A stretch of DNA of 63,058 nucleotides, filler included, from Hausera hauseri (taxonomy: Eukaryota), in assembly GCA_046269625.1 (NCBI GenBank). It is 10 parts of 10 records of this genome, joined end to end, with 100 filler letters (N's around TTAATTAATTAA, not from the genome) between each part and the next. Parts side by side here need not be neighbours in the genome. Positions count along the whole stretch, not along the records: positions 36,853 to 40,815 come from JBJURY010854411.1; 9 more parts are not named here. The stretch is one strand, 5' to 3'. Below the pieces are notes generated by a model. That model did no database searches and was not told the DNA's origin. It worked only from the letters and a program-made list of their open reading frames with translations. Position numbers and translations under genes: made by a program. This document shows, piece after piece, positions 3 to 44,450 of this stretch; the stretch's first letter is position 1, and the number at the start of each line of letters is the position of its first letter.

Positions 3-368
3 GATACTATAGAAAAACTCCAGCAAAAGATTAGATCTAAACTAAAAGAAAGTAAGACTAATACGTTAGAAGACGGGGATAAGATAGCTGAATTAAAACA
101 GCTATACCTCGAATTAAAAGAACAGCAGACTTGTGAAAAAAGACACAAAATGCTGAGTGAAAATGTTATCATAGCTCCAGTTGGTAGACCCAAAAAGTCC
201 CCCGAGTATGAATCAGAAACTGAAAAGAAGATTAAGAGGAAAGATAAACCTCTCATACAAGAATTAAAAACTCCTGAACTAAGTTTGTCTTCGGAAAGTG
301 AAGTTGAGAAAAGCGAATCTAATGGGAAAGGTGAACCAAAAGAAAAGATAAAGAGAACAAGAAAGTAG
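3..368 (+). CDS. 3' end of upstream ORF (possibly gag C-terminus), K/E-rich
   Basis: Frame open from base 3 to TAG at 366-368; overlaps the start of the -1 frame ORF, which is open from 335; no gag motif visible. Confidence 0.45.
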   Translation, partial: DTIEKLQQKIRSKLKESKTNTLEDGDKIAELKQLYLELKEQQTCEKRHKMLSENVIIAPVGRPKKSPEYESETEKKIKRKDKPLIQELKTPELSLSSESEVEKSESNGKGEPKEKIKRTRK

Positions 369-496: not shown

Positions 497-3400
497 ATGT
501 TATTATCACCGACAATTAACCACCATCAATTTGCTAATTTATTGGACTTATTGTTAGTGTATGCTGCAGGCACAAGTCCATACCAGAATATTATACGGTA
601 TATAATTTATCGTTATGCAGATAAAGTAAGCAGAATTGGAGAGAACCCAGAAGTAATAGTTACTCTTCAGCAATACAATCAGGACTTTTACGTCCTAAGA
701 ATGAAGTCGTCAGATACGATAGCCTTTTTAAAGCATAGAATTAATGAAATAAAACAATCTCAAGGAGAACTAGACTTGCGTTTCTATGGACGAACGCTGA
801 TGGATCATGAAACCTTATATGAGGTAGGTATCTGGGAAAACAGATATAATCCAGTATGTATTACTTATAGACAGCCCGAGCAAGAGGTAATTGATGAGAT
901 CATAATGGATGTTAGGCGAAAAGAAACGGAAGAAGCTGAACATCATCAAGAAGTAAGAACTGAAATGAATATTCCTATATCTGAGCAAATACAAACAGAT
1001 AAAAAACCCCGTGGAAGACCGAAAGGTACGACAAAACTTTACCAATTAAAAGGCAGAAAAGCCAGAGATGACGAAGTTGTTCGGAGATTGCTAACAACAG
1101 AAGATGAGTATGATGTAGATAATGTATCATTAACAACATTACTACAAACCTTGTTAGCAAGAATACACAATGCATTTGTTGAGTTCAATACCAATTTACA
1201 AATACCTGATGCACTAATGCAAGCTATAAGAAACGAAATTGCAAAGATTAGTGAGCAATTTGCAGATATCCCTACGGATGAGAGAATAAATGAAATTCAA
1301 GAAAGGGATATTTTATCAAGAATGATGGGAACCGGTATATCCCGAAATAAAATTATAACGGCCATATCGTATCTCTTGTATAAAATAATAGTCATGAACG
1401 GTGTGAATCCGAATCAAGAAGAAATAGAAAGAAACATAGAAATTGCTACCAAAGCGTTAAAGGCCAATGTTGAAGGATGGGTAAAATGTAGAGGTGGATG
1501 GATCACTAGTTTGATTCATACGACAATACATGAATCGGTGCCAGTTACACAACGACAAACGGAATATCTTCCACCTCAACGACCAGAGAGGCAACAAAAT
1601 GTACAACCAGATTTTGATCTATCGTGGTTAACTAAAGTTATACCCATACTTCTCTTATTCAGTCTTATGCCAAAAACACTCTCTATCATTGCTTATGATT
1701 GCAGTCAAGCTAAGGAAGGTCCTATATATTCCTTGTTGGATTTAGAAAAGTGTCCATTTGCTAATCCGGCATCATTAACTACAATAACAGATAAGGATTA
1801 TTATGTTTATCAGGAATCGGAGTTTGTAAAAACCAAAGTGAAAGAATGTTTTGTTCGAAGAAACCAATTCCATTTTATCTGCGGATATTGGTATAGGAAT
1901 TCGGCCATAGTAGAACCGACTACTCCGTTTGAGCCACTCCCTATAAGCAAACGAATGTGTATAGAGGCCTTCGTAACAAAACAAATTAACATCGGAAGTA
2001 TTCGATTAAAAGCTCAAAAAGGAAAAATTATCAACAAGAGGATATTTGTGGCTGGAACAATTGACAAAACAGGCTACTGTAAAGGACAATCCTACATTAT
2101 AAATGGTGAAATGTTGGATAATATAGTAGCTATTGAGGATTATCAAGTTGAGTTGAGAGAGTATGATGCTCTCTTTGAGTTATCATCAGGAAAAATGATG
2201 ACATTTCCTGAATGCGATTACTACAACAAGGAATGTGACACTGGAGAATCAATTATGTCATATGAAGTGGATAAGGATCAATGCCAATTAGCCTTTTTAA
2301 GAAGTGGGAAGTTTAATAAAACGAAAGGAAAGATATACAAAGAAGAGATATCGAAGAGTAGATTAGATCGAATATCAGATACGATTGAAACACCAACCAT
2401 AATATATTCGGCCGATCCAAGCGAAGGTATGAGATTTAAAATAGAAGGTAAAACTAAAAGATGTAACCAAATAGTATATCGAACAAATTATAAAGGTATA
2501 TTTCTATCAATAGATAAAATAAAGGAAGCAAAGAGAAATATAGACAAATCGGAAGTAAAGCCACATTTGTATTTCGATAACAAGATTGACTTTATCTACC
2601 ACTTCCAACAAGAAAATATCTATGCAATGTATAGAGAAATAATACTAAATGATTGTAAACTGAACAAAGAGATTATTAGGAATCGAATATATTTGTCAGC
2701 AATAACGGACGGTATAATGAAAGATCCAGCAGAATCACCCGATACAGAAGGAAAGTTTGCCAGAACAATGGGTGAAACCCTCGTAACTTTCGAGTGTGCA
2801 AAAGTAGCAGTTAAATTAAGACCTATTAAAGATTGTACTATGGAACTACCCGTCTGGTATAAAGAGAAACCACGTTTTCTACAACCAATTACTAGGATAT
2901 TGTTGGATCCTATGGAAAAGCCACTTGTACACCAGAACTGTACATATACTATGTCACCAACGTTCAGGTTGACCAATGATTATTGGATAAGCATGCCCGG
3001 TAAAGAACGGGTGACCACACCCAGAAGAATTAGTTTAATAAACCTAAAGACTGAACAAACCTATAAGCCATTGACAGACTTAGTAAAAATGGGTGTATAC
3101 TCCGAACAGGATATGGAAAATCATAGAAGGATGATGATGGTCCCACAACAGAGACAAAAAGTCTTAACAGAAATGGCCATGAAGGTATTATCTGAACATA
3201 CCGGCAAAGCTAACTGGGAAAATTTGATGGGACCCGATTACGCAAAGAAAATTGCTAGAGATATATTTGCAACTGCATGGGGATGGTACATGTGGTTCGG
3301 CCAGTTTAACTCTGGATGGTTGGGATTTTATTATATCTTTGCCTTCATAAAAGCAATATTAACCATGATAACAAAAGGATATGGTATAAAGCAAGCTGCT

Positions 3401-6322
3401 GGATGCACATGGAAAATTATTTATGCGGTGATCCCATTCGTAGCTAGTTGTTTCTTAATAAAAAAAGATGCTGAGTGGAAACAGAAAAATAAAAATGATA
3501 ATAATGATGAACCATCAACAAAATTAATTGAGAAGATGGGAGAAATAAAACCTCAATCGCTTGAGAATACAAAAAAGACGTGGAGTTTGATTACTGCCCG
3601 AAGTAAGAAAAGAAGAACCTTACTTGCGGATATCCCTCAAATGAAACGATGGAACGAGTATCCAATGGAACAACAATGTTTTATGTCACCTAATGAATAT
3701 ATAGATGTACATTGTTCCAGTGATGTGGATAATTGCGAGTCAAAACATATGAAACTTACATTTTATCCAACGGCCCCAAAAGAGGCTCTGATAACAAGTA
3801 TTGACGGAGGAAAAGTAATTCCGAGAATAGTAATTTGGATAGACGGATATCCTCTTACTGCAATAATAGACACGGGAGCATCAGCTTCGATGATCTCTCG
3901 CAAACAGCTGCCAGAACAATTAAAGAAAAAGTTACAGAAACCTATAGAAGATCTCACAAATGTCGGTGCTTTTGGAACAAAGGTACAAGTGCGAGACATA
4001 ATAAAATGTGACACTAAAGTCCTGAATCAAAAATTCGAACAAGAATTCAGAATAGCGGATGAACTAGTAGCCGAAGCTATACTTGGGTGCGATGCATTGG
4101 CAAAAATGAAAGATATGTGTATCCATTTAGAAACTCAACAAATCCAACCTCTTCGAAAGATGAAAAATGGAAAGAAAGATACAGTCTCCATTAAAGAAGA
4201 TGTACTGATTCCGGCTAAAACAGAAGTTGTACTCAAAGCAATAGTCGAAGGAAGATATGAAGGTGAAGTTTATATAGAACCAAATATAAGTTTTATGACT
4301 AAGAACGAACTATGGATAGCTCATATGATTGACAATATCCGAGAACAACAAGTGATCGTCAGGATAGCCAATGTTTCAAATAAGTCTAAATTTCTCAGGA
4401 AAGGCACAAGAATTGCCTACGTTTACACTATAAAAGATGTAGGCAATAAGGCAACAGAAGATATTATTTCTATTGTACAGGAGTTATCCAATTTTATGGA
4501 AAGACAAAAACAAACTTCAAGAACCAAGTGCGATATACGATTCGAAACAGAACCGATGAATAAATTAAAAGGACATCTTAATAAAAAGAAGATAATAACA
4601 CAGTTAACTAAAACTCTAATTAATTGGAATGATTTTGATCTATTTGGCAAGGACAGTACATTAACAGATATAGAAAAAGAAGGTATAGTTAAAATATTAC
4701 AACAATATAAGGATACCTTCGCAATAGATGAATATGATATGGGTATCATACCAGTCATCAAGCATGAGATCAAATTAAAAGCCGGGATGGAAACCCCTAT
4801 TAAAAAGAGACCATACAGACTCAATTATGACAAAAGAGAAAAAGCCAAAGAAATAATAGCTGAGATGAGAAAATATGACATAATCAGACCCAGCAATTCC
4901 CCCTGGGCGGCTCCTATCGTTATGGTACAGAAGAAGGATGGATCCATTAGAATGTGTGTAGATTATCGTGCTCTTAATGAAGTAACGGTAGACAATACCT
5001 ATCCGTTACCCAGAATTGATGAGCTATTGGATAAATTAAAAGATAAAATGTTGTTTACTACATTAGATCTACAGAAAGGATTTTGGCAGATAGAGGTACA
5101 AGAAGAAGATAAACAAAAAACGGCCTTCGTCACAGCAGATGGACATTATGAGTTTAACCGAATGGCATTTGGAATGAAGAACTCTCCGGCAACGTTTCAA
5201 ACAGCCATGGATATAATAACAATGGATGCTCCACACATAATGTGTTATGTAGATGATGTGATAATTGCTTCAAGTGATTATAAACAACATAAGGAACATC
5301 TCAAAGATATGTTGGAGAGGTGTGCCCTTCTCGGTATAAAAATAAGTTTAAAGAAATGCTGTTTTGCTAGGACAAAAGTAGATTTTTTAGGCCATACGGT
5401 CAGTAGAGAAGGCATCAGTCCACAGATTGGAAAGATCAATAAAATACAGGATTTTCCAGTCCCAAAAACAGTGAAAGGAGTTCGTAAATTTCTCGGTCTT
5501 ACAGGATATTATAGAAAATTTGTTAAAAATTACCAACAAATAGCTTCTCCTTTACATTCGTTACTACAAGAAAACTCTAAACTAGTGTGGACCCAGGAAT
5601 GCCAAAAAGCGTACCAACAACTGAAAGATAGTTTGTTAGCCCCACCAATATTGGCTTATCCAAATATGTCTAAACCATATTTCTTAGCCACAGACGCAAG
5701 TAAAGTTGGAATAGGAGTTGTTTTATCTCAGAAGGATGATCAAGGACAAGAGCATCCTATATCATTTGGAGGACGAAAATTGAGAAAACACGAGAAAAAT
5801 TATTCTACAATTGAAAGAGAATTACTCGCGATCGTATATGCTTTAGAACAGTACGGACAGTATTTGTCGGAAACCAAACCAATTGTTATCTATACCGACC
5901 ATAAGCTGCTACAATGGTTAAAGAATCATAAAAATCCAAATAGTCGTTTGATGAAATGGGCAATGCTACTTCAACCTTACGACTTGAAGTTTGAATATAA
6001 GACTGGTAAGGCCAATGCAAATGCAGACTACATGTCCAGAATACCTGAGGACATAGATCAAGAGGAAGAAATAACGGATAAACCAGGCGTTATAGCAGCC
6101 ATCTGGAGTATTACGGAACATGAAAAATCTTTGCAACAAAAACAACAAGATGATGAACAAATAAGACAAATTATGGAATATATCCAAAAGAAAATTACAC
6201 CAAAAGATATTGATCTTCATACTCACTTAATAAAGTTTGCTGAAAACTATCAAATAAAAGATGGCATATTACATTACAATTATAAAGGAAAATTGGTTGT
6301 TGTTGTCCCCAAGAGGATATAA
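497..6322 (+). CDS. pol: Polyprotein part 1: Ubl, AT-hook, fusion glycoprotein, aspartic protease, RT, RNase H, start of IN (frame open from 335)
   Basis: PR IIDTGASASMI (~3869); RT SPWAAPIVMVQKKDG..MCVDYRALN and YVDD (5246-5257); RNase H ATDASKVGIG, YSTIERELLAI, TDH, NADYMSR. Confidence 0.93.
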   Translation: MLLSPTINHHQFANLLDLLLVYAAGTSPYQNIIRYIIYRYADKVSRIGENPEVIVTLQQYNQDFYVLRMKSSDTIAFLKHRINEIKQSQGELDLRFYGRTLMDHETLYEVGIWENRYNPVCITYRQPEQEVIDEIIMDVRRKETEEAEHHQEVRTEMNIPISEQIQTDKKPRGRPKGTTKLYQLKGRKARDDEVVRRLLTTEDEYDVDNVSLTTLLQTLLARIHNAFVEFNTNLQIPDALMQAIRNEIAKISEQFADIPTDERINEIQERDILSRMMGTGISRNKIITAISYLLYKIIVMNGVNPNQEEIERNIEIATKALKANVEGWVKCRGGWITSLIHTTIHESVPVTQRQTEYLPPQRPERQQNVQPDFDLSWLTKVIPILLLFSLMPKTLSIIAYDCSQAKEGPIYSLLDLEKCPFANPASLTTITDKDYYVYQESEFVKTKVKECFVRRNQFHFICGYWYRNSAIVEPTTPFEPLPISKRMCIEAFVTKQINIGSIRLKAQKGKIINKRIFVAGTIDKTGYCKGQSYIINGEMLDNIVAIEDYQVELREYDALFELSSGKMMTFPECDYYNKECDTGESIMSYEVDKDQCQLAFLRSGKFNKTKGKIYKEEISKSRLDRISDTIETPTIIYSADPSEGMRFKIEGKTKRCNQIVYRTNYKGIFLSIDKIKEAKRNIDKSEVKPHLYFDNKIDFIYHFQQENIYAMYREIILNDCKLNKEIIRNRIYLSAITDGIMKDPAESPDTEGKFARTMGETLVTFECAKVAVKLRPIKDCTMELPVWYKEKPRFLQPITRILLDPMEKPLVHQNCTYTMSPTFRLTNDYWISMPGKERVTTPRRISLINLKTEQTYKPLTDLVKMGVYSEQDMENHRRMMMVPQQRQKVLTEMAMKVLSEHTGKANWENLMGPDYAKKIARDIFATAWGWYMWFGQFNSGWLGFYYIFAFIKAILTMITKGYGIKQAAGCTWKIIYAVIPFVASCFLIKKDAEWKQKNKNDNNDEPSTKLIEKMGEIKPQSLENTKKTWSLITARSKKRRTLLADIPQMKRWNEYPMEQQCFMSPNEYIDVHCSSDVDNCESKHMKLTFYPTAPKEALITSIDGGKVIPRIVIWIDGYPLTAIIDTGASASMISRKQLPEQLKKKLQKPIEDLTNVGAFGTKVQVRDIIKCDTKVLNQKFEQEFRIADELVAEAILGCDALAKMKDMCIHLETQQIQPLRKMKNGKKDTVSIKEDVLIPAKTEVVLKAIVEGRYEGEVYIEPNISFMTKNELWIAHMIDNIREQQVIVRIANVSNKSKFLRKGTRIAYVYTIKDVGNKATEDIISIVQELSNFMERQKQTSRTKCDIRFETEPMNKLKGHLNKKKIITQLTKTLINWNDFDLFGKDSTLTDIEKEGIVKILQQYKDTFAIDEYDMGIIPVIKHEIKLKAGMETPIKKRPYRLNYDKREKAKEIIAEMRKYDIIRPSNSPWAAPIVMVQKKDGSIRMCVDYRALNEVTVDNTYPLPRIDELLDKLKDKMLFTTLDLQKGFWQIEVQEEDKQKTAFVTADGHYEFNRMAFGMKNSPATFQTAMDIITMDAPHIMCYVDDVIIASSDYKQHKEHLKDMLERCALLGIKISLKKCCFARTKVDFLGHTVSREGISPQIGKINKIQDFPVPKTVKGVRKFLGLTGYYRKFVKNYQQIASPLHSLLQENSKLVWTQECQKAYQQLKDSLLAPPILAYPNMSKPYFLATDASKVGIGVVLSQKDDQGQEHPISFGGRKLRKHEKNYSTIERELLAIVYALEQYGQYLSETKPIVIYTDHKLLQWLKNHKNPNSRLMKWAMLLQPYDLKFEYKTGKANANADYMSRIPEDIDQEEEITDKPGVIAAIWSITEHEKSLQQKQQDDEQIRQIMEYIQKKITPKDIDLHTHLIKFAENYQIKDGILHYNYKGKLVVVVPKRI
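650..868 (+). other. Ubiquitin-like domain within the polyprotein
   Basis: SSDTIAFLKHRI and LRFYGRTLMDHETLYEVGI align with ubiquitin PSDTIENVKAKI and LIFAGKQLEDGRTLSDYNI; no C-terminal GG. Confidence 0.75.
1001..1027 (+). other. AT-hook motif
   Basis: KKPRGRPKG. Confidence 0.7.
1625..3460 (+). other. Env-like class III fusion glycoprotein (chuvirus/Jingchuvirales G-like)
   Basis: Internal signal peptide WLTKVIPILLLFSLMPKTLS, then IIAYDC..YSLLDLEKC; Cys-rich ectodomain (KVKECFV..FICG, GETLVTFECAKV, CTMELPV..FLQPITRIL); C-terminal WGWYMWFGQFNSGWLGFYYIFAFI TM. Confidence 0.8.
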
Positions 6323-6327
6323 AACTA

Positions 6328-9300
6328 TTGTTAATACAATACCATGATGGTATGTTGGGAGGACATCAATCAAAGAAGCGAACATTGGGTAGATTGAGAA
6401 GAAAATATTACTGGCATAAAATGCCTAAAGATGTAGAAGAATGGTGCAAAAGTTGCCCCAAAAATACTGGCTCAAAAATTAAGGTCCCCCTTAAACCACT
6501 GGAGTGTCCACCAGCCCCAATGGAGTTCTCAGCAATGGACATTCTAGGACCGTTACCTATGACAATAAATGGAAACAAATATATGTTAGTATTTGTTGAT
6601 CTATTTTCCAGATGGCCGGTCGTAATACCAATACCAGACCAAAAAGCCCAGACGATTGCTCAGGCCTTTGTCGAGGAAATTGTTTTTAATTATGGAGCAC
6701 CAACCAAATTATTGACGGATCAAGCACCAAACTTCACAGGAGAAGTCATGGCGCAAATATCAAAAATATTTCAGGTATTACAATTAAAAACTACCCCGTA
6801 CCATCCTCAAACAAATGGAACAGTGGAAAGATTTAACGGAATTTTAACCAATATGTTAGCTACAATGGTCAATGAACGACAAGACGATTGGGATGAGTAT
6901 ATTAAACCATGCCTGTTTGCAATTAGAAACACAATTCATCCAGCAACTAAGGAAACACCTTTTTATTTGATGTATCTGAGAGATACTCATATGCCAATTG
7001 ATTTGGATTTTAAAATTCCAATTTCCCATTTAAAAGATCTGGAATATAAAGAATTGTTAGAAGAAAAATTAGGGTATGTATGGAATCTAGCGTCTCGTCA
7101 CATGAAGATATGTCAAAAAGAATATAAAGAACGATACGATGAAAAAGCGAAACCACATGACTTTAAACCTGGTGATAAAGTCATGTTACATACACCCTTA
7201 AATAAGAAAGGAAAGACACCGAAATTAGATAGACCATACAAAGGTCCATACATAGTTCAAAAAGCAGATGAAACTAACATCTATCTAAATAAAAATAAAA
7301 GAAATAAAATCGACCCTATAAAAGTTCATGTAAACAGGTGTAAACCAGCACCTATAGAGTCGAAAATAAGGAATGAAAACCTCAGTTCGTTATTAATGGT
7401 AATATTTATGACATTAACCTTAGTGACCGGTATATCAGCTCAAACATTAGATGTAAACTATAAGGCCGTACAAATTGGAAAATATCCCTGTATAAAAATT
7501 ACAGCCAATCGGAATCTGACAACAGATGAATATATACACATATTCATATCGAAATATCCGGTACTAGAGAAAACAACACCAGAAAATTGCGACTTATATT
7601 ATAATCACTCGGTACACATTTGTTGTGGACTTTCATTTGGAGAAACATATAGAATTCAGTATGCAACTGGGAAAAGTGATCAGAGTTACAGAACATATTT
7701 CTCCTTCCCTGGTACTACCCATCATTTTAATCGACCATATTTTCTTATTTCATTTTACCCTAAAATTATGAAAAATGGACCTTGTGTAACAGCGGAACCA
7801 GATGTTACAATTACGAGATATGTCACATTCAAATACATAATATTTGATGGTATTAACAGTATATACTGTAAACCAAATTATGAAAATCCATATATATGTT
7901 GTCCCATTGCCTTTGACAAGGAATATATGATATATTACTGGACTACATATAATGGCCAAACCTGGTCAAAAACATCAGATGGCCCGGAGATAATGGTAAG
8001 ATCTCCCCCTAAGAAAATTACAATCTCAACAAAGAAAACAATTACTTTAACAACAACACCCACTTTAGTAACCAGCCTAACAACTAAAGCCAAAAAATTC
8101 ATTAAAGAATTAGATATAATCATCCAACCTACAATTCATTCATTGGTTATTACGGCATCCGATTTAAAAACTACCAATATAAAATTTGAATGCTATCTTA
8201 ATTATAGAATAATTAGTGAAGGTGTACTAACTCCAGATGAACCAACATCATCTTGCTTATCTTTGAAAGCCGACACCAGTTACCAAGTTATTATAACAGA
8301 ACTAGATGAGGATGGACAAGTTTTACAGGTTCTTAAAAGGAAGGAGAAAACGTTGAAATTACCTATGATTAATACAGAAAGAGTTACGAAAATAGTTACT
8401 ACACAAAAATTTGAACAAACTTCAAATAAACATTCTTGGATAATTATTATATTATGTATTCTTTTAATATTGGTAGTCATATTAATACCTTTAACAATTT
8501 ACTGTTTAAAAATAAGGCGGCGACAGAACAGGGTAAGAAAAATGCTAAATCATTTAAAAATGTTAAAAGAAAACTCCCAAAACTCCTTATTAGATATAAG
8601 CGCGTCTGTTTTAGAAAATCCACGGCAAGTTGAAAAACTTACCGACCAAAAACGGCTAATCCGCCCGTTAAAAGACACGACCGTTTGTCTATGTACTCGA
8701 ATATACGATGAGGCCGCCAAAACCTTAGTGACCTATATAAGAATTAAACAATCAAAATACGATAATGTCCTATTCTTTAAAACCGCTTGGCTAATGCTAA
8801 TGTTTTTATTTTTAGTCCAAGAAGGTGCAGAACGAACTGAAAGGCCCAATGCTTTTTACAATCACATTTTGTCTAATTTATGGGCTACTTCTCATCAGAA
8901 CTATTGCTACTATGGAAAAGCTGTACTCATCCCCAATAACCTCAAGGGATATTCTATCCAGCAAAGAAGTGGTCTCATAGTAAAATTGCAACAGAGATCA
9001 ATTAATCTCTCCGATCTAATAAATACATCCGGATATACCTATGCTGTATATATCTCAGTCGCCAGAGGAATTATTCAACTCAAAAGTAAGTCACATGCAA
9101 CGGGAATCACGGATGTGATGGAGATCTTAAACCGAGTAACCGTTCGTTTGGACCCTCGACTATACCTTAACGCTACAATTACTATACGAACATGCGAAGG
9201 ATCATTCCCAATAATTTATATAGAAGTGATTAAAAAGGATCAAATACTTCGCTTGGATTACCAAATTCCAAAATTTATGACACCCAGACCTAAGGAAACT

Positions 9301-10221
9301 GATGTAGAAGCAGGGTTATCATTTATAAGAAGGCCAATAACTTCAAAAGAAGTAATAATAATAATGGCTTTGAATTCGATATATTTATTCACTTCAATCA
9401 GAAATACTGAGACAACTCCTGTAGAAGTAACGTTAATGAAGTTAAACGGTGAAATTATCCTGGATGAAATTCTATGTCCTAGGGAAAAAATTGATAACTA
9501 TAATACCCATATAACAGGGTTAAAAGAGGACCACATTATCGGTAAAAAAGATTTCTATCATGAAGAACCCCTTTTGAGAAAAGCAATTGTGGGAAAGGTA
9601 ATTGTAGGCATCGATGTTTATAACATCTTTGCAACCACATTCAGATACGACTATAACAATCTCTTGGGGATCAGGGAACTTTTATATCACAAGGATGTCA
9701 ATCCTCAGCGGATATATACAGCTAAACAAATTCTCACCCAATACAATGATAATAAATACCCTCAAAGGACTCGAGACAAAGCTTTGACCATACTGAAGAT
9801 TTATAACTCTATTTTCGAGTATCAAAATGAGAAATTCGAAGAACTAACAAGTTCAAGAGAATCAATGGATACACAACCAATCGCTGACTACCCAATCGCG
9901 CTAATTCCTACAGTGTCAACTCTACCTATCGATGATCAAACTGAAACATCCTCTTCCGTTCAGATAATGAAAGACTGTTCTATTGATCTGAAGCCGTTGG
10001 AATTAACCAGCTCTACTGAATCTATTCTCGTAGACCTTACGAAGACGACAAAAAGAAAAAAAATTCCGAAGAGAGAAACAATTACTCTGAAGAGACAGAT
10101 TAAAAAGAAAGGGCGAGTACTTCATATCAAATCCGTCGACTACCAAGACTCAAATGGAATTATAGAAGCCTACCCTTTGATGCTGCGGACAGCATCATCT
10201 AAGGAGGGAGGTGTCAAATAA
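6328..10221 (+). CDS. Polyprotein part 2 (after a 1-nt frameshift near 6312): integrase, signal peptide, 3 FN3-like repeats, TM, unknown domain, DEDDh-like domain
   Basis: H..H..C zinc-binding region; DDE residues AMDILGP, LTDQAPNF, GTVERFNG; GPY module KGPYIV; hydrophobic segments at 7381-7440 and 8437-8508. Confidence 0.88.
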   Translation: MLIQYHDGMLGGHQSKKRTLGRLRRKYYWHKMPKDVEEWCKSCPKNTGSKIKVPLKPLECPPAPMEFSAMDILGPLPMTINGNKYMLVFVDLFSRWPVVIPIPDQKAQTIAQAFVEEIVFNYGAPTKLLTDQAPNFTGEVMAQISKIFQVLQLKTTPYHPQTNGTVERFNGILTNMLATMVNERQDDWDEYIKPCLFAIRNTIHPATKETPFYLMYLRDTHMPIDLDFKIPISHLKDLEYKELLEEKLGYVWNLASRHMKICQKEYKERYDEKAKPHDFKPGDKVMLHTPLNKKGKTPKLDRPYKGPYIVQKADETNIYLNKNKRNKIDPIKVHVNRCKPAPIESKIRNENLSSLLMVIFMTLTLVTGISAQTLDVNYKAVQIGKYPCIKITANRNLTTDEYIHIFISKYPVLEKTTPENCDLYYNHSVHICCGLSFGETYRIQYATGKSDQSYRTYFSFPGTTHHFNRPYFLISFYPKIMKNGPCVTAEPDVTITRYVTFKYIIFDGINSIYCKPNYENPYICCPIAFDKEYMIYYWTTYNGQTWSKTSDGPEIMVRSPPKKITISTKKTITLTTTPTLVTSLTTKAKKFIKELDIIIQPTIHSLVITASDLKTTNIKFECYLNYRIISEGVLTPDEPTSSCLSLKADTSYQVIITELDEDGQVLQVLKRKEKTLKLPMINTERVTKIVTTQKFEQTSNKHSWIIIILCILLILVVILIPLTIYCLKIRRRQNRVRKMLNHLKMLKENSQNSLLDISASVLENPRQVEKLTDQKRLIRPLKDTTVCLCTRIYDEAAKTLVTYIRIKQSKYDNVLFFKTAWLMLMFLFLVQEGAERTERPNAFYNHILSNLWATSHQNYCYYGKAVLIPNNLKGYSIQQRSGLIVKLQQRSINLSDLINTSGYTYAVYISVARGIIQLKSKSHATGITDVMEILNRVTVRLDPRLYLNATITIRTCEGSFPIIYIEVIKKDQILRLDYQIPKFMTPRPKETDVEAGLSFIRRPITSKEVIIIMALNSIYLFTSIRNTETTPVEVTLMKLNGEIILDEILCPREKIDNYNTHITGLKEDHIIGKKDFYHEEPLLRKAIVGKVIVGIDVYNIFATTFRYDYNNLLGIRELLYHKDVNPQRIYTAKQILTQYNDNKYPQRTRDKALTILKIYNSIFEYQNEKFEELTSSRESMDTQPIADYPIALIPTVSTLPIDDQTETSSSVQIMKDCSIDLKPLELTSSTESILVDLTKTTKRKKIPKRETITLKRQIKKKGRVLHIKSVDYQDSNGIIEAYPLMLRTASSKEGGVK
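7381..8508 (+). other. Second type I membrane protein with three FN3-like repeats and a Thr-rich linker
   Basis: Repeated motif ICCGLSFGETYRIQY / ICCPIAFDKEYMIYY / SCLSLKADTSYQVII; TM WIIIILCILLILVVILIPLTIYCL followed by basic KIRRRQNRVRK. Confidence 0.65.
9350..9820 (+). other. REXO4/ISG20-like DEDDh exonuclease fold with catalytic residues substituted
   Basis: EVTLMKLNGEIILDEILCPREKIDNYNTHITGLKEDHI..KAIVGKVIVG resembles the REXO4-type RVSIVN..G..YDKYVKP.EPVTDYRT.VSGI....L..LKGRILVGH; ALNSI stands in place of ALDCE. Confidence 0.7.
10201..10211 (+). promoter_or_regulatory. Polypurine tract
   Basis: AAGGAGGGAGG immediately before TGTCAA. Confidence 0.75.
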
Positions 10222-27106: not shown

Positions 27107-27474
27107 AAAGTTTTCTCATATACCGTACAATCAGTCTAATATAATGTATTCAAGTCAGTCTGACCATACATTAGTGTAAAATTCATCAAATCTAACATAA
27201 TATATTTATGTCAATCTGACCATACACTTTTCTATAAACTCATTATGTCTTGCTTGCCTTTCTATTCAGCTTCAGGTTTGTAAGGTCATGGGACCATTAA
27301 TAAATATATACATATATGTGTGACACTTTTACTTCTTATGTGCTCCCCTATAATATTCTACAATATTCTTTTNNNNNNNNNNNNNNNNNNNNNNNNNNNN
27401 NNNNNNNNNNNNNNNNTTAATTAATTAANNNNNNNNNNNNNNNNNNNNNNNNNNNNNNNNNNNNNNNNNNNNGC

Positions 27475-30430: not shown

Positions 30431-30489
30431 ATTTGCGCTAATGATGACGATGATTTTGACGATAACGCAGTTTGTTTATTATCGACGTT

Positions 30490-31440
30490 GGCGACGTCCA
30501 AAATGTAACGTCAAATGTGTCGTTGACCTAAAAAATTTAATGAGTTCCAATAATTCATCAAGCATATACATGAAAATACTATGCGCAATATTGTGAGATA
30601 ATCATAAGTACATGGGTCTGAGCATATTAACGCGAACAGTTTCATCCGATGTTTTGTACGTGTCATAATCCAATTCAATAGAAGCCAGTAGTTGTTTACG
30701 TTCTCCACCAACGAGTACGGATTCGGTTGAGTCCGTTAAAATGTTGATTCTATGAAATGCTCCATAGAACTGCGGTTTGTATTTGGCAACAATGGATCGA
30801 CCAATAATGTTTTGATAGAATTCGCGTTTTGAAAAACCCAGATTCCCAGCCAATAATTCATCAAAGGCAAAATATGTAACATTGTCATGTAGTATAATCA
30901 AAATATGACCATCTGTGTTTATTTCACACTGTCTTTACGGCTAATGTAGCCGTTTTCTTAACGTACTTACACAATTCTAGTTCCATTTCCATTAATAAAT
31001 CGTGTGGTATAATGTATGAGCGGAAGACGGATTCTGACTTAGTCCACTTTACTATATTATCGGATTCCGCATTGGATGAAAAATCCGACTTTTCACCAGT
31101 TATAACACATCGACCTAGCCGTATATGTTTTGATTGTACATTGGCTGATTGAATACCCCATGCCTAAGCATCAGATATCGGTTATTGTGTCTGATTGTCC
31201 GCAAACGACTTGAAATAGGGTACGATTTTTGTCGGGCAAAGTAAATACCACTGTTCTGACGAATTGTCATTGGTGAAACTGTAAATGTGAATTCCGTCAG
31301 AGCCACTTTCCAGGCTCCCTGGCATAAATCGACCAGTTGGTCCAAGTGCATGGTAAACTGTTTAGCGGTACTGTCATTGTCGTCATGTTGTGATAATTAT
31401 TTGTTGCTATCAAGTACCAAGTAAATGCCGCGGTGATGCA
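30490..31440 (-). pseudogene. Polinton minor capsid (penton) protein A
   Basis: YLVLDSN..QFTMHLDQLVDL.QGAWKVALTEF; INILTDSTESVLVGG..QLLASI; RPMYL. Confidence 0.75.
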
Positions 31441-32500
31441 AAAATCCAACTCAATGCAATGTATCCGTGCCACTTGACGAGATATTGTTTATTCAAACCT
31501 TTGCCACGTGAACGTATAATTTCCTGAATACGATAAACATCGGGTTTCTGGGCAGTACCTGCAGTTTCGGTTCGTAGAATTTACCGCGTATTTCCTCACC
31601 GTTTTCATCCTCTAAAACGTACATGAAAGGTGTTTGTTTTGTGTTGATTGACGAAATGGAAAAAACCTTGTCGCTCCAGTTCTTATTGAAATTCTTAATG
31701 AATGGCGCCGTACTTATTTTTGAAATAAGTACCTAAGCAACTATTTTATATTTTCAGCGTTTAATTGTCTGTTGTTGTAGTCGTTGTCTTGTTCGATTTT
31801 GATAAAGTCACATGTCCAAGTCATCTATTGCGTCAACCGGCCGTAATCCATTGATGCCACGATGTGTCAAATGATTGCATGCATAAATAGTATCCGACAG
31901 TACATTTACCCAGCGTTTGTTGCCTTGCTTCGTAGAGAATTTGGTTAGGCGACCGCGCAATAGTCGAATAAATCGTTCAACAATTGCAGACTTGTATTGG
32001 GAAAACATAGAGTAGTGGTTTACGCCGAACGGTTTCAAGACCGTTGAAACGTGGGCGTTGTAGAGTTCCTTACCTGAATCCGTTTGTACATGTTTCTGTG
32101 GTGGTTGTTGTTGTTGTTCAATTAATCTGTAAACAGTATAGGCAATCTCTTTACCGAATTTAGATTTCACGCCAAATGCATGCGCAAAATGACTAAACAC
32201 ATCAACGCATATCAGCACGTGCCGATACCCATAGTTGATGCTGGCGTACGGATTCATTTCCACTAGATCCACTTGCCATACGTTATTTACACCTGCAGCA
32301 CAATATGCATGAGTTGCAAACTGCCTTCTTATCGGTTTGTTTAGGCTGTATGCTAACTGTTTCCCGAACCAACGTTTGGTCTGTTGCCGAGTCTGTTTGA
32401 CAGCCTTTGCCAATTTGTCGACGCCAGTATACCCGACGGGATGACGCGGGTCGAACCACACGTTCCCCATCGTTGCCGTCGGTAATGTCGTTTTTGTCAG
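31440..32500 (-). pseudogene. Polinton retroviral-type integrase with chromodomain
   Basis: WFDPRHPVGYTG, WQVDLVEM, QTDSGKE, SAIVERFIR; C-terminal KYLVKWHGY. Confidence 0.9.
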
Positions 32501-32756
32501 CATTACAACAATTAGAATAAAACGTAAATAAAAGATTTGGTAAACTGGGGTAAAAGATGAAAACCATGCACCCATATCGCCGAATCATCATACACTTACT
32601 GTCACTGTTTATACTACGCTGTTGCAGAACTAATGAGTCCACCCAGTAATGACGTGNNNNNNNNNNNNNNNNNNNNNNNNNNNNNNNNNNNNNNNNNNNN
32701 TTAATTAATTAANNNNNNNNNNNNNNNNNNNNNNNNNNNNNNNNNNNNNNNNNNNN

Positions 32757-33862: not shown

Positions 33863-35255
33863 TTAAATCTGTACATCGTCTTCCGTCTGACTTGAAATCA
33901 AATCGCGATTTTTTGGTGCAACGAAAGATCCCTCTTGATCAGTGTCATTCAATTCATCAATTTGTGTTTCTCGAAGTAAGGTGGGGATGTGAAAAACTAT
34001 ATTATTCAAATGTAGTGCTAAAATTGGTTTTGCTTCATCGCTCTTTTCGGACAAAATATCAGATAAGGAATTAGCCGCCATGACCTTTACTGGCAATTCC
34101 GGATCGTTGGAAATCGTATGGACAATGTTGTGAATCATATTTTCGAACACGACCTGGTTTTGAAATTCGGCACCAGACAACTGACCGACTAACCAACAAG
34201 CACGAGCTCGACGGAAACCTTCTGGCACCTTAAAGATCGGTACGACATAGTGGGTTGAAAACTGTTCCATTTGAATCAAGAAATTCTTTCGTTTCAATGA
34301 AATTTGTGCCAAATCACAAATATTATGAAAGGCGGTATCTTTTTGGCCCAGTTGTGCCAAGTGAATTAAGAACATCGGTAATGAAAGACATTATAACTTC
34401 AATAGCACCCTGTCGTTTTTGACAGACTTCCGTTAACAAAGTTGCAGCAGAAAAACTGGTAGTTGGATCCGAAAGGATGTCGAAAAATCGACGACAAAAC
34501 CAATTACTAAATTCCTTGAATTTCTTAGTAACCGATTGCGGATTGGAATATTTATCGGTGAAGCGAGACTATTTGAATGGACCATTTCTTGCATTGCCTT
34601 CAGATCAAATTCGGTCGTTCGTCCGCGTCAAAATTGTTTATTTCAATCGGAATGGGTCTTGACTTTGTGACAGAGAATGTCAATCCAATATGAAAATGTT
34701 TCTTTTGAAATTGTATCAAGACACAAATGTAAATATGTGTATGCATAGTAAATTTTAATTACATGCTTTTGGAATGTTACACTAACTTCCGATTGATCAC
34801 CAAGCAGCAATTCGATGTTCCATCACCGTTTCTAAAAATGGAAACGTGTGTGGGTTTGAAGGTGTGCGTTCGGTGACCTTTTCATATTCGTAGCATTTCA
34901 TCAATTTCAACAGGCACAAATATCCACCTATCATATAAATTTGATTTTCTAATAAAAGGTACCTCATTCTATAATTTGGGAGCTTCTCCCATCGACCTGG
35001 AAAGTAATTACAAATCATCACTTGTAAACATTCTAAAAATGAGTTGCGAATCTTGTTTGGTGTGTTGACAACATATTCAATAATTCTAGATCGAATGTAC
35101 GATTTATCATCTTCATGGATGGAATAATCAGTTGGATCTTCATGAACGGTCCAATATTCTTGAATGTTATTTTTTAGCGTAACATCAGCTGACTGACGTA
35201 CACCGTCTTCAAGTTCATGTGATACAGCAATGTTGTAAAGATTAGGACAAAAGCC
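33863..35255 (-). pseudogene. IPO7: Importin-7/8 fragment (intronless, disrupted)
   Basis: [30 protein letters not shown] (IBN_N domain); QMEQF..VVPIF..RARACW..ELPVKVMAA. Confidence 0.85.
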
Positions 35256-35625
35256 AATAATTTTCTTCACTCCAGTTGGATCTTTCGTAACTTCGGGGAA
35301 AGTATCCCTCAATAACTCAACGACTGTATCGACTAAAGTGAAAGTCAATCCGGGTTTAGCATTCAATTTGTCCCAAGGGTGTCGCACACCACGTGGTAGT
35401 ATTCGTCGAAGAACATATCCTCGACTAGTATTGCTGGGAAGTCCGTTATTACTCAACGCAGCTGTCAGAGTACGGGCATGGTCAGCCAACACGCGATATG
35501 CCATATCAATGCCGTCGATATTATCGGCACCAACTTTACCTGTGTATGGTCGGTATCCTGTTACTTCTTCAATTTTCTTGAATAACGCAGTAAACACGTC
35601 GGTATCGTAATTCGACATGTAGAAT
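35256..35625 (-). pseudogene. AARS: Alanyl-tRNA synthetase fragment
   Basis: [46 protein letters not shown]-like. Confidence 0.9.
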
Positions 35626-35629
35626 GGTA

Positions 35630-35870
35630 AATTCATTGCGGGACTCGGGAAAAAACTTTCCCGTCCTTTGACGAGCAAATTCAGATTGACAATAAATCCG
35701 ACATCAACACGTTTGTCATGAACTAAATCTACACGTTTGATTGAGTCGAGTGCGAATTCCTGTCGCTAACAAATCGGGCAGAGAACGGCTTTGTATACGT
35801 TGTTTCAGTAAATTCGCTAAACAACAGAGACAGAAAATGTGACCACAATTGTCCGTCCGAGGGATAAATG
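35630..35870 (-). pseudogene. RING-finger fragment (RNF10-like)
   Basis: PRTDNCGHIFCLCCL; frameshifted. Confidence 0.5.
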
Positions 35871-36852: not shown

Positions 36853-39310
36853 CCTGTTGGAATGTTTTCATTATTAGGACAAATTGATCCTGACTGTAGG
36901 TTAATATGGAACCCTTCGAGTTTTCGTAAAACGTTCATTCCTATAATGCATCGTGGGTCTAAGGTAGTCATTACATCGAGCGTTACTTTAATCCTTTGTC
37001 CACAAATCAAGGGTTCACATTTCCAATATCCATACGGTTTTAAACACTGTTGGAAAGCTGAAGTAGTCCTGCACATTCTTTTGGGGCTATCTTTACTTGA
37101 GATTGAAGTTCGTTAGGTATCGCATGCTTACCTATTAAAGAAACACTAGCGCCTGTGTTTATCATCGCATTTATATCAAACGTATCAAAATGGATAGTAG
37201 TATGCGATCGATTGTCTCTTATTAATTTAAGAAAAGTCAAGACGTCATTATGATCGTCTATGTGCGGTTCCATCAAGGTATACATAGCTGCACAATAATT
37301 TATTACCTATTTTGAGATTGAGTATCTTCCTCTAGTTTCATATTTTTTTGTTTGAACTCGGTGAGGTCTGGATAATAACTAGTGCGCTCTGTTACAATTT
37401 GCTGCACACTACCAGATTTTTTTATTAAGGGTATGTATTTTGATTCTTTTTGATATTCAGAGTTATGGTTGTCAAATAAAGTGTTAACCTTCACTTAATG
37501 GTAAGGTATCGGTTGTGCTATACTCATTCGAGGAGATACCGATAGTGTCACACGGTTCTTCTCCATGTTTTGAGTGATAAGAGAATGTAGTATCTCTTCC
37601 TTTAAGAATTTGATAAATTACGTATCCTTATGTACTCTTCTATAGTTGCGTATGGATCTTTTATCTCTGGTAAGTTTAAGTTGGGTAGTTTCGTAGTCGG
37701 AATAGTTTTACTTTCGTAAGATGCATTTGGTTTACTATTTTTACCTCCTAATTTTGTTTTCGCCATGGTGAATAATTTTCTTTTATTTTTCTTGGGAATT
37801 TCTGATTCGGGATAATATCCTGGTGCATCGTTTCTGTTGGAGCTTGATGACGTATCTTCAACGATTGACTTACCAGTTTTGTAGTCTACATGTTTCTCTA
37901 ATTTGCCTCGCCATTGTTTCTTATGGTGGGCTTTAATAAATTTTCCAAGCGGTAAAAATAATGCACCAATTATTCTTAACGACAACCCCGTTAAACTATA
38001 AATTTCGTAGGCATTCAATACCGAATTAATGCAGACTTTCAAGGTTTGTAAAATAAAGTAAATAGCTAAAAATCCTGAGGCAACTTAGCCAAATTTGAGG
38101 AATCCACCCCACATTTTATACCACAAATTCGAAGCAATTTTTGTATACGCCTCTGGCGTCCATAATTGATCCAATTTACCTTCTACTGCCGTATCATAAA
38201 TCACCCTATGTATTCCTCAATTTACAATTTGTTTTCGTTGTCTTGGATAAGCTAGAAACTTTACGAATGCGTCTGTTTCTTTTTTACTGTATAGGGCTGA
38301 TTTTGACACATCCGTAAACATGTTGGTTTCAATGGTGTGTCTAAGATTGGTCATGGTTAATTTCTTCGGTTTTTCTTTCACTCTTTTTCTATCAGGTAAT
38401 CTGACCCATAAGCCTTGATTATCGTATTTAATGTATGGTTTATTTAGTGCCGTACAGTTTTGAATTTCTGTTGGAATGGTACATGGTGCTAATAATACTC
38501 TAGAAATAGGTTGAACATAACGGATCTGATCCTGGTATTTAATAGGTATTTCGAAATAACAGGGTGTATTTGTAATTAATGGCAATTCCAATCTTTTGCA
38601 TTTATATGTAAACAATACTTCACTTAGGACTCTGCCTTGAACTCCTTCATCAAAAAGAAGAGTGAATGTAATCATTTCTGAGTCGGATGCGTAAATGGCT
38701 AGTCTATTTCTCAATGTATCAAAGTGAACCCTGCAGAAATTCTGAATCGTCTCGGAATACACATCTTCTATAGTTTTGTGTGTTAAGTAAAACAGGAAAT
38801 CATCGCTGTTAGCAATATAATCGGCTATATTAACCAATTGTGCTTTATTAATTGGTGAATTATCTGCTTCTACAATCTCTTTGTCTGATATAAAATAATT
38901 TTCATAATTAGTGCTAAGCACTTGTCGTTCACACTTGGTGGTGAGATTTTGTTGTATAAACTTGACTCCTCCTTTAATATTCTTGGATATTATGATTTTC
39001 GGAGTTTTTACTTCAGGAATTGTTTGGATATTTGAATTCTCGAAGTTTGCTTCGTAATGTCGAGCGTAACGTTTTCCAGTTGTTACATTAAATTTATCCT
39101 AATGTACCACCACTAGTGTACCATCGTAACATTTCGGTGCTGTTTATATTATAGTTGAAGTTCTTGTATTATAATGTCCTATTTCTAATTTGCAGAAAAA
39201 AGCATCCATTATAGTTTTGGTACTTGTTTCAAAAACAAAGGTTTTTTCTTTAATTACGACTTCGTATTGATCATGTACGACAACTTTTGAAATAACTCCT
39301 TTGCCTGTTT
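36853..39310 (-). pseudogene. Decayed relative of the first element: glycoprotein, TM, spacer, protease
   Basis: TPKII..KCERQVLSTNY, EVLFTYKCKRL..CYFEIPI..YVQPISRVL and WGGFLKFG..SGFLAIYFI match the glycoprotein at 1685-3460; INTGASVSLI protease motif at ~37160. Confidence 0.8.
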
Positions 39311-39422
39311 TGACGGGGAAACTCGATTGATAAAATTTAAATTGGATATTAATTATTAACTTTAGTAAAATATTTTGTTTCTTTTTATCAAATAAAACCG
39401 GTAAATTTTTTTATTTAGAATT

Positions 39423-40690
39423 TTGACAACAATGCAATCGAAAGAAATCATCAAGCGGTCAAATGACCAACTCGACGAAGGAGAACTCCATTTTAATATA
39501 CAATGTGACGTTGAAATAAATGATTCTTCACAGACTCCGCGTTTCGTCCCATATATCAACTCTAACATGGCTGACCTACCCCAGCTAGAACAGAGAAACC
39601 TGAAAAAATTTATTAAAAACTTTCAGGAGTGGATAAATTTCACCGAATCAGTAAACAGAATAACGCTATCCAACGAAGAGAAATATTGAATCGTGCACAA
39701 AACTCTGCCATCGGAGTACGGTAGATTGTTTCAAGTAGAGACCAAAGCAGCAAGGAAAACAACAAGTTGGGAAGACAGACTGCGCAAAACCTGCAGCAAA
39801 CCGCTATAGGTCACAGAAGATATGTAAAAACTGCTGAGTTACCGGAAAGGCATAAATGACATAGAAGTATACCTGATGAAAGTACAAGAGCTCGTTGAGA
39901 AACTCTTGCAACACGACATGTTGAAAGAAGAACTGGTGAAAACCTTTCTAGTCCATTGCATGGACGACAGGGAAACCAAGAAAAAATTCAGTACATGTAG
40001 AGCACAATCCGTAGAACAATTCCGAGACGTCATGCGAAAGATCGAAAAATTTCGCGAAGTGGACAACAAAGAAGGACTATATGCAGTAGAGTCGCGACCA
40101 TATAAACAGCGAGGTACAGAAAGGACACATCGAGATGCGAATGTTGGACAGAGTCATGCACCGCTGTCTTACGCAAGTGTGGCCCAACAAAAAGCGCACA
40201 GCGTATATGGTTGGGACAACAAACGAACAACAAGACGACAGCCGGCCGAGAAACGGAAACCACAAATCAGGTCCCCAAACCGACATAATGCTTGCATTGC
40301 CACATAGAAGGGCATACCAGAAGAGAGTGACCAATAGTAAACAAAACAAAGGGCATAGGCAGATGCTGCTACGCATGCCACGAAGAAGACCACATTCAGA
40401 AAAACTACCCATATTTGAAATGCCCGCACTGCAGAAGGAACGGGCACCTAGGATCGCAGTGCTACCAAAGACGCCGTGAACAACGAGAATACACGACGAA
40501 TTCAATCTATCGCGATATGCAATACGATGAATATACCGACTTCGTCAGACCCACAAAAGAGTCGATTGTCGAACGACATCCACGGTCACTTAGTGTTTCG
40601 TCGTACGACTGTACATCCGACAACCAAACAAACCGATCGGGAAACGACCGTGCTCCCCTGCCAAGAAAGTCAGAAGGAGCATGTTAAGTA
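39423..40690 (+). pseudogene. Degenerate gag-like ORF with CCHC knuckles
   Basis: CYACHEEDHIQKN and CPHCRRNGHLGSQC; stops and frameshifts. Confidence 0.6.
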
Positions 40691-40916
40691 ACTCAATTAT
40701 TGAACCTTATCGTAGTGTAGAAAAAAATTGTAGTGTAGTTAAACAAAAAAATAGTAAAAGTAGTATAGTTAACTGTAAATATAGTAAAAATAGTAATAGT
40801 AGTTATAGTAGAGTTNNNNNNNNNNNNNNNNNNNNNNNNNNNNNNNNNNNNNNNNNNNNTTAATTAATTAANNNNNNNNNNNNNNNNNNNNNNNNNNNNN
40901 NNNNNNNNNNNNNNNA

Positions 40917-42009: not shown

Positions 42010-44450
42010 CGTACGTTTATTTCAGCCGCCAATGTCCGTACGCTCAACTCTTATTTCACCCCACCCACTTTCGCTTGTCATCGTTACATGACGAAACGAC
42101 TTTTGCACCAGTTATTGTGTACAGCTGGTGCTCAAGTGATCGGATGATCGTTTGGGACACAACAGCCACTGATTATCCTCCTTCTACTGCTACTTCTTCA
42201 TATATACGTCGATAATCACCGTGATCGATTTCCGTCTGTCTCAGCTGGACTCCACTTGCCCGCATTTTCGGTCCACAGTTCGTTAGAAGACTGTAGCACT
42301 TTGTGCATAGGAATATCCATTCCCGATATTGGACACGACCTTCACTTTCATCCTTGAAGCAGCCGATTTTGTTGGTTATCGTGCTGCTGTACAAGAGATG
42401 ATCAGGTGGGTAGTTAGACGTGTCAAGTAATCCATCTGACTTCATTTGCTGCAGTAGCTGTTCACGATTAACTTTTTTCAGCCGCAGGAAAGAACTGTCT
42501 ATGTCACCGGCAATTATACTAATGCCACAGCCGTCAAACACTTGCCGGTAACGTGCCAAGTCGCGATGCTGTACCTCATATATCCGCAATTTGCTGAGGT
42601 CCAATACCACTTGTCCTATGTAACTTGGCCAGTCTAGAACGACTTCTTCTCTGTTTAACAGCACCGCAACCAATCCATCGGCAATGTGCATTGACCGCCG
42701 AAACTGCACCTTTCTGGTATACGTAGCCAGCTGCTTTTCGCTGTTGTATAGGCATACATTGAGGCGCTTTTTCAGATTTTCCACTGTTATTCCGTTCAGG
42801 GAATTGTTTCTCAGCTTGTAATAGTCCTTGCGGCTCGTTTCTCCGAATTTCCCTCTGTGTACGCCTTGAATACGGGAGCCTGAGCAAATCGGATTGCACG
42901 ATGCAGCTGTGTAACGCAAACACCGAGCTGCATGTAAAACTGTAGCAGACGTTAATGGACCACGTAATTCAGCTTCGGTTCATGCGTTATGAGCCGTTTC
43001 TTCTCTTTTGAGCTTGGCGGACATTGGTTAAATGGTGCGACCGGTAAATCGTCCAAAACGTCATGCAGCTCATCTGGTATCACGAGATCGACCTCCATCA
43101 GGTATCGACTGAGCCTGCCATGTCTAGGGTGACCGTTATGTCGTCCAGATCTTGTCTGTCGACTACCCATTCGAATGAACTGTACGGCAAGGGTTGCGAA
43201 AGCGCCTAGCCATACAGACTGTTAATATCCTTATGAAGCAGTGATGTGGTATCGATAGTACTAATCTGATGCTTGTTGACAAATTTTATGCCATCTCGAA
43301 TACCAACATCAAACAGCCGGTACATTTCCAAGTCTTGCAGCAGCTCAATGTCTCGATCTAGTTAGATTAAAGCTGACGTCCAACTCATTCCCGGTATGGA
43401 AGAAAAGTTGAGTGGCTCCAGCCTATCTTCAGCCAACACTTTAGCTCGAAATGTCTGAAACACATCGGCTAATAAGCACACATCCAGTTTCAGATACTGA
43501 AGCATATACTCCAACATGTTTCTGCAACAGAGTTCTGTCCAACACCTCTGTGCTTTCCGGTATTCATCCTCTGCGAAACCTGTCCATAGCGGCTGTAATT
43601 CCTTTGCTGATCGTAGTCCCATATGTTGTTGCAAAGTCATACGGGAATATGCCTTTGCTACGCGCCATGTGTGGAAAATCAGCACATCCTACAAGGCATT
43701 TACGAGCTTTGCTAGAGATTCATTGAGAAATTGCAATGAGTCGAGAAAGCGTACCTGGAACCGGTTTATGTGTGCTGACAGGTACAGGTATTTTTCCATT
43801 GTTATTGGGGCTACTGACAATTTCTAGTGGGAAAATCCATTGATTGCCAATTTCAGTATATGGTAACAATCCTAACCTCGAAAATTGTGAAATATCGCCG
43901 GTATGAATGGTCGCACACGTCTTGCCAAATTGCATGTCCACATCAAGGGTTTATTGCTATTTCTACTGTATCAGGGTGCAATTTTAGTTTCCACTATGGT
44001 TTGCAACATCTGCAGGAAATCACGTACACAGTTCCAGCGGTGAAAGGCATAATACTGCGGCTGACCGACCGCTTTTATTGGGACGACCAACATACCAACG
44101 GCAATTGGAACGTGTTTTTAATCATAGACGTTGTGCAGTGGTAGAATTGCCTCAATATTGGCATATACCACATATGTCGGACTGTCCGTTTTCGACCAGT
44201 CACTGAATCTGAGCTCCTTTTTGAGTGGCATGACGTACATGGTTGTTCCCGTTGAATTTTGCTTGCACAGCGTCACATGTTTCTCCCATGTTGTTTTTGA
44301 CATGAATCCATGCAGAGATACAGGACAGCATTTGCATCGTATTCGCTTTTTGATGAACTGGTCATGCTCCATGTTCAACAGTCTATTCAGATTTGTCACT
44401 GCCTGTTGTTTAATAATTCCATTGGAGTTGTAACGGTAATTTGACACACA
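42010..44450 (-). pseudogene. polB: Polinton protein-primed family B DNA polymerase (degenerate)
   Basis: YLKLDVCLLADVFQTFR, DINSLYG, KLRNNSLNG, AGDIDS, KIGCFKDE. Confidence 0.9.

Follow-up and report, generated by a model that had tools for sequence, protein, structure and literature searches.

Does the glycoprotein that precedes an aspartic protease at 36853-39310 represent an inherited env-before-pol gene order, or did two unrelated sequences come to lie side by side? The locus is part of a window (the whole stretch of DNA analysed, 63,058 nucleotides from Hausera hauseri) in which 10 contigs, most of them bearing mobile-element fragments, are joined through N44-TTAATTAATTAA-N44 spacers. 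The initial annotation had described here an independent second copy of a glycoprotein, a TM pair, a spacer of ~250 aa and a protease, all on one strand, and had read the layout as old and shared by at least two subfamilies. This copy is found on the minus strand of the contig 36853-40815 and was compared with the first contig (1-10221, with ORF 335-6322 and ORF 6286-10221), from here on the reference element (Table 1). We consider 36853-39310 very probably a dead, 5'-truncated fragment of a Burro-like Ty3/gypsy GAG-ENV-POL LTR retrotransposon, of a different family from the element at 1-10221. The contig contains no RT, IN, own gag or LTR and ends directly past the protease, so that its Ty3/gypsy membership rests on its relatives.

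Table 1. Coordinates of the features of the env-protease copy, its flanking sequence and the reference element.
Feature	Position	Strand	Evidence or remark
Retroviral-type aspartic protease, two frames, break near 37090	36856..37215	-	Family profile
Env-protease linker, ~245 codons, one decayed frame, minimum of 3 breaks	37216..37946	-	Fewest-break path
YPDL on the fewest-break path, ~53 codons ahead of the protease domain	37363..37374	-	Not significant alone
env, C-terminal ~three quarters of a Monjiviricetes/gB-type fusion glycoprotein	37947..39311	-	tblastn, Pfam
Second hydrophobic segment, shorter, contains proline	~37947..38003	-	Kyte-Doolittle 1.6-1.75 (both segments)
First hydrophobic segment, contains one stop	~38016..38105	-	Kyte-Doolittle 1.6-1.75 (both segments)
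44-bp junction sequence, marks the env cut	39311..39354	+	90.9% identical to 45292-45249, another contig
Gag-like ORF, decayed, unrelated	39432..40687	+	One full and one degenerate CCHC knuckle, by eye
Reference: Gag-to-Env linker piece	3..365	+	63% identity with P0001 aa 245-361; frame differs from that of the next ORF
Reference: ubiquitin-like domain	689..835	+	Pfam PF00240 E 0.002 (E 1.3e-4 on sub-region), below curated cut-off
Reference: Bcl-2-like helical domain	1208..1501	+	Pfam PF00452 E 0.0025, below cut-off
Reference: internal signal-peptide-like segment, fusion glycoprotein and two hydrophobic segments	1613..3469	+	PF24664 E 2.2e-76; hydropathy
Reference: YPTAP motif in the Env-protease linker	3764..3778	+	Motif scan
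Reference: protease (DTG intact), dUTPase-like stretch, RT and RNase H, in frame with env	3821..5980	+	Pfam
Reference: dUTPase-like stretch between PR and RT	4187..4420	+	Sole Pfam match dUTPase, E 0.1
Reference: integrase, signal-like segment, ectodomain, membrane anchor and 520-aa tail of no family	6286..10221	+	Pfam, hydropathy

That the two glycoproteins are homologous and strongly diverged was borne out. In tblastn, aa 593-1051 of ORF 335-6322 aligned to 39296-37902 (minus strand) with 26.7% identity over 476 columns (E 1.2e-47), and PF24664 matched both open env pieces of the copy (E 5e-25 and 4e-8). By this profile an HSV/gB-type (chuvirus/Monjiviricetes-like) env is predicted in both copies. 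Part of the divergence behind the ~27% figure is due to decay after insertion. The env of the copy has in-frame stops at 39146, 39101, 38219 and 38087, with zero frameshifts, and has lost ~140 codons at the 5' end. No solved relative of the Env ectodomain was found by sequence with phmmer, and a word-index search with the open env piece gave 0 among 1026 candidates, which is weak evidence.

A HMMER scan with this env (stops as X) retrieved 596 proteins at E<=0.001, and relatives were taken from the best 150 of them. Ten of the top 15 have a protease after env and the other five end at most ~45 residues past the env match, too early to tell. Among the best 150 of the 596, a protease was found in 14, always downstream of env and never upstream, while most of the others are proteins of ~650 aa that resemble free-standing glycoproteins. 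With ORF 335-6322 and four more, env is N-terminal to the protease in all 19 proteins that have both domains. Pfam independently found the protease in 15 of the 18 database env-PR proteins (P0014, which ends inside the protease, was missed; P0069 and P0133 were left unscanned). The closest relative among the matches listed is P0157 (31.5% identity, E 2e-75), with the order CCHC-Env-PR-PR-RT. Median env identity among 16 env-PR rows is 36%, and the copy at 36853-39310 shows a mean of 26% to those rows; P0001 and the reference element are 79% identical over 767 columns. With at least two families, env first in every case and such divergence, the layout is shared, as had been proposed, but its age cannot be dated from the window. 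It is a trait of the family and no accident at one locus, and it also has been published for three phyla. The independence of the copy needs a similar qualification: it belongs to a separate family, but it is no separate env capture, only a dead fragment.

In intact relatives a single polyprotein comprises Gag, Env, PR, RT, RNase H and IN. Both window contigs are truncated and lack a gag of the family, but Gag stands before env in P0001, P0006, P0012 and P0016, and in P0006 Gag, knuckles, Env, PR, RT, RNase H and IN are all within one ORF of 3,181 aa. As read from sequence, the intact layout is Gag-(ubiquitin-like)-(Bcl-2-like)-Env-PR-(dUTPase-like)-RT-RNaseH-IN in one polyprotein. The pol of the reference element gives Ty3/gypsy-type RT-RNase H-IN profiles, in the order env-PR-RT-RH-IN. 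Its frame changes near ~350 and ~6286-6322, where P0001 and P0003-P0006 are continuous, may be either decay or an assembly error; at the second one the integrase is out of frame with RNase H, and in P0003-P0006 it is in frame. The ubiquitin-like, Bcl-2-like and dUTPase-like stretches of the reference, all below cut-offs, stand in the order published for Burro; in the copy at 36853-39310 the part before env is missing and the stretch between PR and RT would lie past the contig end. For the Bcl-2-like part the top Foldseek rows were nearly all of the Bcl-2 family, but with E>=0.39 and from a model of pLDDT 50 built on a poor six-row alignment; phmmer against PDB was negative, VIA-align gave no clear match and Atlas no usable one. 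By eye, a Bcl-2-like stretch is located just before the Env signal in P0006, P0008, P0013 and P0043 (Pfam matched it among these only in P0013, E 9.6e-4), and it is absent from P0002-P0005, P0009, P0011 and P0012, indicating a variable accessory domain.

Two further features were seen in some members. In ten of the 18 proteins Env is followed by 2-4 protease domains, which precede RT in those that have one (P0002-P0005, P0008, P0010-P0012, P0016 and P0157), and an additional protease follows IN in four proteins; the copy at 36853-39310 has one protease, and the family profile found no second one inside its linker. A second signal-like segment and membrane anchor come after IN in the reference, P0003, P0006 and P0009. 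In the reference this region (7381-8496 and 8650-10221, plus strand, in frame past the integrase) consists of a signal-like segment, an ectodomain of ~330 aa that matches Fn3 weakly and is rich in Thr over one stretch, and a strong membrane anchor, the final 520 aa having no Pfam family. About 1.2 kb downstream, at 10990-11390 (plus strand), the last part of ORF 6286-10221 recurs in diverged form (33% over 51 aa, E 7e-5).

How could such a polyprotein work with an ectodomain in its middle? Gag would be synthesised in the cytosol, and an internal signal sequence would thread the Env ectodomain into the ER; a hydrophobic segment ahead of env is found in the relatives that include that region. 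One C-terminal segment would then anchor Env and the second hydrophobic segment would stay on the cytosolic face. With a single membrane anchor, the linker and Pol would be back in the cytosol, where the protease could cut itself, RT and IN free. All three products, Gag, Env and Pol, would be made on the same membrane in a ratio of about 1:1:1 and would leave the cell by budding, in an enveloped particle, allowing cell-to-cell transfer (soma-to-germline or stem-cell). We propose budding and transfer of this kind by analogy with Drosophila errantiviruses; for gB-type elements PMC13524379 and PMC6431247 state them as still to be tested. The copy at 36853-39310 is incapable of these steps, with its at least eight breaks, the loss of the catalytic Asp and an env cut by opposite-strand sequence.

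The topology is the point at which a different reading has the best chance, if a minor one: the gene order would be right, but both hydrophobic segments would cross the membrane and Gag-Pol would be made from a spliced RNA skipping env. Hydropathy shows a pair of hydrophobic segments past the ectodomain in most relatives, and if both crossed, Pol would end in the lumen; besides, a 1:1:1 ratio of Gag, Env and Pol is unusual among retroelements. On the other hand, the Env-to-Pol frame has been kept at a median env identity of only 36%, something that skipping would not need, and the second segment is short and contains a proline. Of the TM pair of the initial annotation both hydrophobic segments are there and the first (38016-38105) is a probable membrane anchor, but we infer that the second (37947-38003) is not membrane-spanning.

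Much less probable is that the protease comes from an unrelated element which, by insertion or recombination, came to lie behind a viral glycoprotein that had inserted on its own. The linker is central here. Env is in frame with PR-RT in ORF 335-6322, and in the copy it is in frame with the protease after three linker breaks; the spacer measures ~245 codons up to where the protease domain starts and ~263 up to the triad, close to the ~250 aa first estimated. Three breaks in the 730-nt linker on the minus strand compare with 9.0±1.6 in 300 dinucleotide shuffles (0/300 as low) and with 10 on the plus strand. The fewest breaks on the minus strand are 4 for env (16.9 in shuffles) and 1 for the protease (4.1 in shuffles, 2/300 as low), although on the plus strand, too, the protease region has unusually few breaks (1 against 3.2, 7/300 as low). 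Break density is similar in env, linker and protease, 2.8-4.1 per kb, which fits a single decay age. AT skew is <=0 in all 13 windows over 36853-39452 and >0 in all six from 39453 on. No long repeats were found within the contig 36853-40815, and LTR-like repeats were absent from it and from the reference contig, both of them short. A linker that is one decayed frame, with neither an LTR-like repeat nor a skew change, makes a nested protease unlikely; env, linker and protease of the copy once formed a single reading frame. In favour of the nested origin, the linker has no alignable similarity to relatives except a non-significant YP motif.

The protease itself had been called from its motif, and this stands: the profile of 28 family protease domains (seeded from 16 of the 19 env-PR proteins), searched in six frames over the whole window, gave two collinear pieces on the same strand as env, at 37201-37091 (model 5-41, E 3.8e-4) and 37085-36888 (model 41-106, E 1.1e-9), but they are split over two frames and the motif at 37159 is NTG in place of DTG, with Asn at the catalytic position. 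The only other matches of this profile in the window were the two intact proteases. Pfam RVP gave weak independent support (E 0.024 on the first piece, none on the second). Plain tblastn of ORF 335-6322 against the whole window did not report this protease, which was recovered by isolated-domain searches and the profile. In pairwise comparison with 27 protease domains its best match was ORF 335-6322 (score 118, z 20.8), and the top 12 scores were all from env-pol polyproteins; the env-less gypsy protease of the window ranked 14 (score 58). This control is a single one and reaches 125 against family proteases, so that protease similarity discriminates weakly.

In the env tree (40 of 128 rows used, as in the topology test) the copy falls in a clade of 25 rows (93/93) with all 16 env-PR rows and eight others. 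Within it, the weak pairing (85/78) with the protease-less glycoproteins P0042, P0151 and P0049 is a point for the nested origin. Against it, the rows at the shortest tree path from the copy are env-PR proteins or fragments grouping with them. Constraining the copy into the env-PR group was no more than not rejected (p-AU 0.457). In the RT tree a single env-less row, on a long branch, was located inside the group beside ORF 335-6322, leaving this tree uninformative on one origin. Taken with the continuous frame and the uniform breaks, the nested protease, which the initial annotation gave as its own refuter, is not supported by frame, skew, repeats or protease scores.

A nested origin could also appeal to the second element that the contig does contain, but its gag-like ORF is on the opposite strand. 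This element sits 5' of env and cuts it near 39311. The 44-bp junction sequence could not be classed as an LTR end; at 45219-45292 a sequence like it adjoins a short G+C hairpin at a contig end. Pfam found neither a gag nor a knuckle match in the ORF 39432-40687. As the gag of the env-protease element this ORF was rejected, being on the wrong strand and with zero similarity to the family Gag. Domestication of the fragment by its host, as a fusogen or an antiviral env gene, is highly improbable. In its favour, env is long and has no frameshift; against it, env contains four stops (contradicting, unless they are assembly errors), lacks the signal peptide and N-terminal part, and decays at the same rate as its neighbours.

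The rest of the window is also rich in decayed elements. Two related Ty3/gypsy elements, 15502-20735 (plus strand) and 23004-27115 (minus strand), are 67-70% identical and contain gag, RT, RNase H and IN, with a protease motif in the first only; neither matches the glycoprotein. A further decayed RT-IN region, 49163-50679 (minus strand), is 28-31% identical to the env-pol family. The region 29551-32584 (minus strand) contains an integrase ORF (31808-32584) with small ORFs nearby, and 59608-62023, with a type B DNA polymerase fragment at 60018-60917, is 74-76% identical to 42181-44403; this suggests Polinton/Maverick-like remnants in these three regions. Host-like fragments were found at 33863-35765 (minus strand), where a piece of alanyl-tRNA synthetase and an importin-beta N-terminal match overlap in the same frame and HEAT-like sequence follows downstream; this looks like a chimeric pseudogene. 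The whole contig 52676-58913 is a 68-bp tandem satellite (~92 copies, 74% match). Rfam gave zero matches over the whole window.

To return to the linker, 14 of the 16 compared have a Tyr-Pro dipeptide 15-75 residues upstream of the first protease. YPxL is present in 6/16 (shuffle mean 0.3), YPx1-3[LI] in 10/16 (shuffle mean 1.5) and PT/SAP in 3/16 (shuffle mean 0.06), and PPxY is not enriched (1/16). For these counts P0004 was dropped as a near-copy, the linker limits were set by hand and the proteins are related to one another. In seven linkers not inspected beforehand, YP was present in six and YPxL in five, and P0157 also has a YP motif. The YPDL of the copy at 36853-39310 is a poor case: with a position matrix from 14 family YP sites it was matched by 26% and 33% of 500 shuffles, and the env-less control outscores it. 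PTAP, PPXY and YPXL are known retroviral late domains (PMC8952333). Tentatively, YPx(n)L and sometimes PT/SAP may act as ESCRT late domains of the Env-protease linker, on the cytosolic Env tail, and the Gag-Env-Pol polyprotein would then drive its own budding; tandem proteases and, in some members, a second membrane protein after IN would be further family traits. Aromatic-Pro is also the type of site cut by retroviral proteases, and a cut there freeing Pol from the membrane would explain the motif equally well.

The env-before-pol arrangement is genuine, but the literature has described it since 2019. The giant gypsy elements Burro and GYPSM1 are known from planarians (Grohme 2018 and Jurka 2007, cited in PMC6431247). 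Burro is described as one polyprotein with Gag (CCHC), ubiquitin/SUMO-like, BCL2-like, Env, PR, dUTPase-like, RT, RNase H and IN domains (PMC6431247); its Env is related to mononegavirus fusion proteins, and it was called the first case of an in-frame env between gag and pol (Arkhipova & Yushenova 2019, PMC6431247). Compared with that description, the reference element and its relatives have in common with Burro an env in frame between gag and pol within one polyprotein, and the ubiquitin-like, BCL2-like and dUTPase-like stretches may be further common features. They differ in that Burro is a giant of >25 kb whose ORF1 of 4,873-5,140 aa has MATH, BIR and ankyrin domains, for which Pfam gave no match in the window ORFs, both window elements being truncated, nor in the scanned relatives of up to 3,243 aa (the longest relative found has 3,761 aa). 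The Burro section of PMC6431247 mentions neither multiple protease domains nor a linker motif, nor a membrane protein downstream of IN.

GAG-ENV-POL errantiviruses with an HSV/gB-type Env have been reported from Nematoda, Bryozoa and Platyhelminthes (Chary & Hayashi, eLife 2026, PMC13524379), with 36, 10 and 9 rows respectively in supplement 1. According to the same source they do not form one clade and the layout is read as long-standing. They resemble the elements described here in the Ty3/gypsy pol with a chuvirus-like gB-type env before it, in having several divergent families per genome (six in Schmidtea mediterranea) and in an env identity of ~20-30% within groups. Their inclusion was based on intact ORFs and several near-identical copies (PMC13524379), whereas the copy at 36853-39310 is broken at least eight times and the reference element is out of frame at two places. 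The main text of PMC13524379 is silent on ubiquitin, Bcl, polyprotein, late domain and single ORF. Non-canonical nematode endogenous retroviruses have the env/pol order flipped likewise, an RNA-virus glycoprotein having been captured by a metavirus (Sacco et al. 2022, via PMC13524379). BEL/Pao elements with a chuvirus-derived glycoprotein (Dezordi 2020, PMC7642597) share the glycoprotein family, also on an LTR retrotransposon, but have a BEL/Pao pol in place of the Ty3/gypsy-type pol of the reference element.

Outside the retroelements, the flavivirus polyprotein is also threaded through the membrane, with capsid, internal signal, envelope protein and then enzymes; this is an analogy in how it works and no homology is claimed. 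As the gene order was already published, the fragment adds one more divergent, dead member to the family. The linker Tyr-Pro motif, the tandem proteases and the membrane protein after IN were not found in the literature searched; paywalled papers, figures or supplements may cover them. The Tyr-Pro motif is the only lead worth following, being a small but concrete handle on how Pol may be released from the membrane or how particles may bud.
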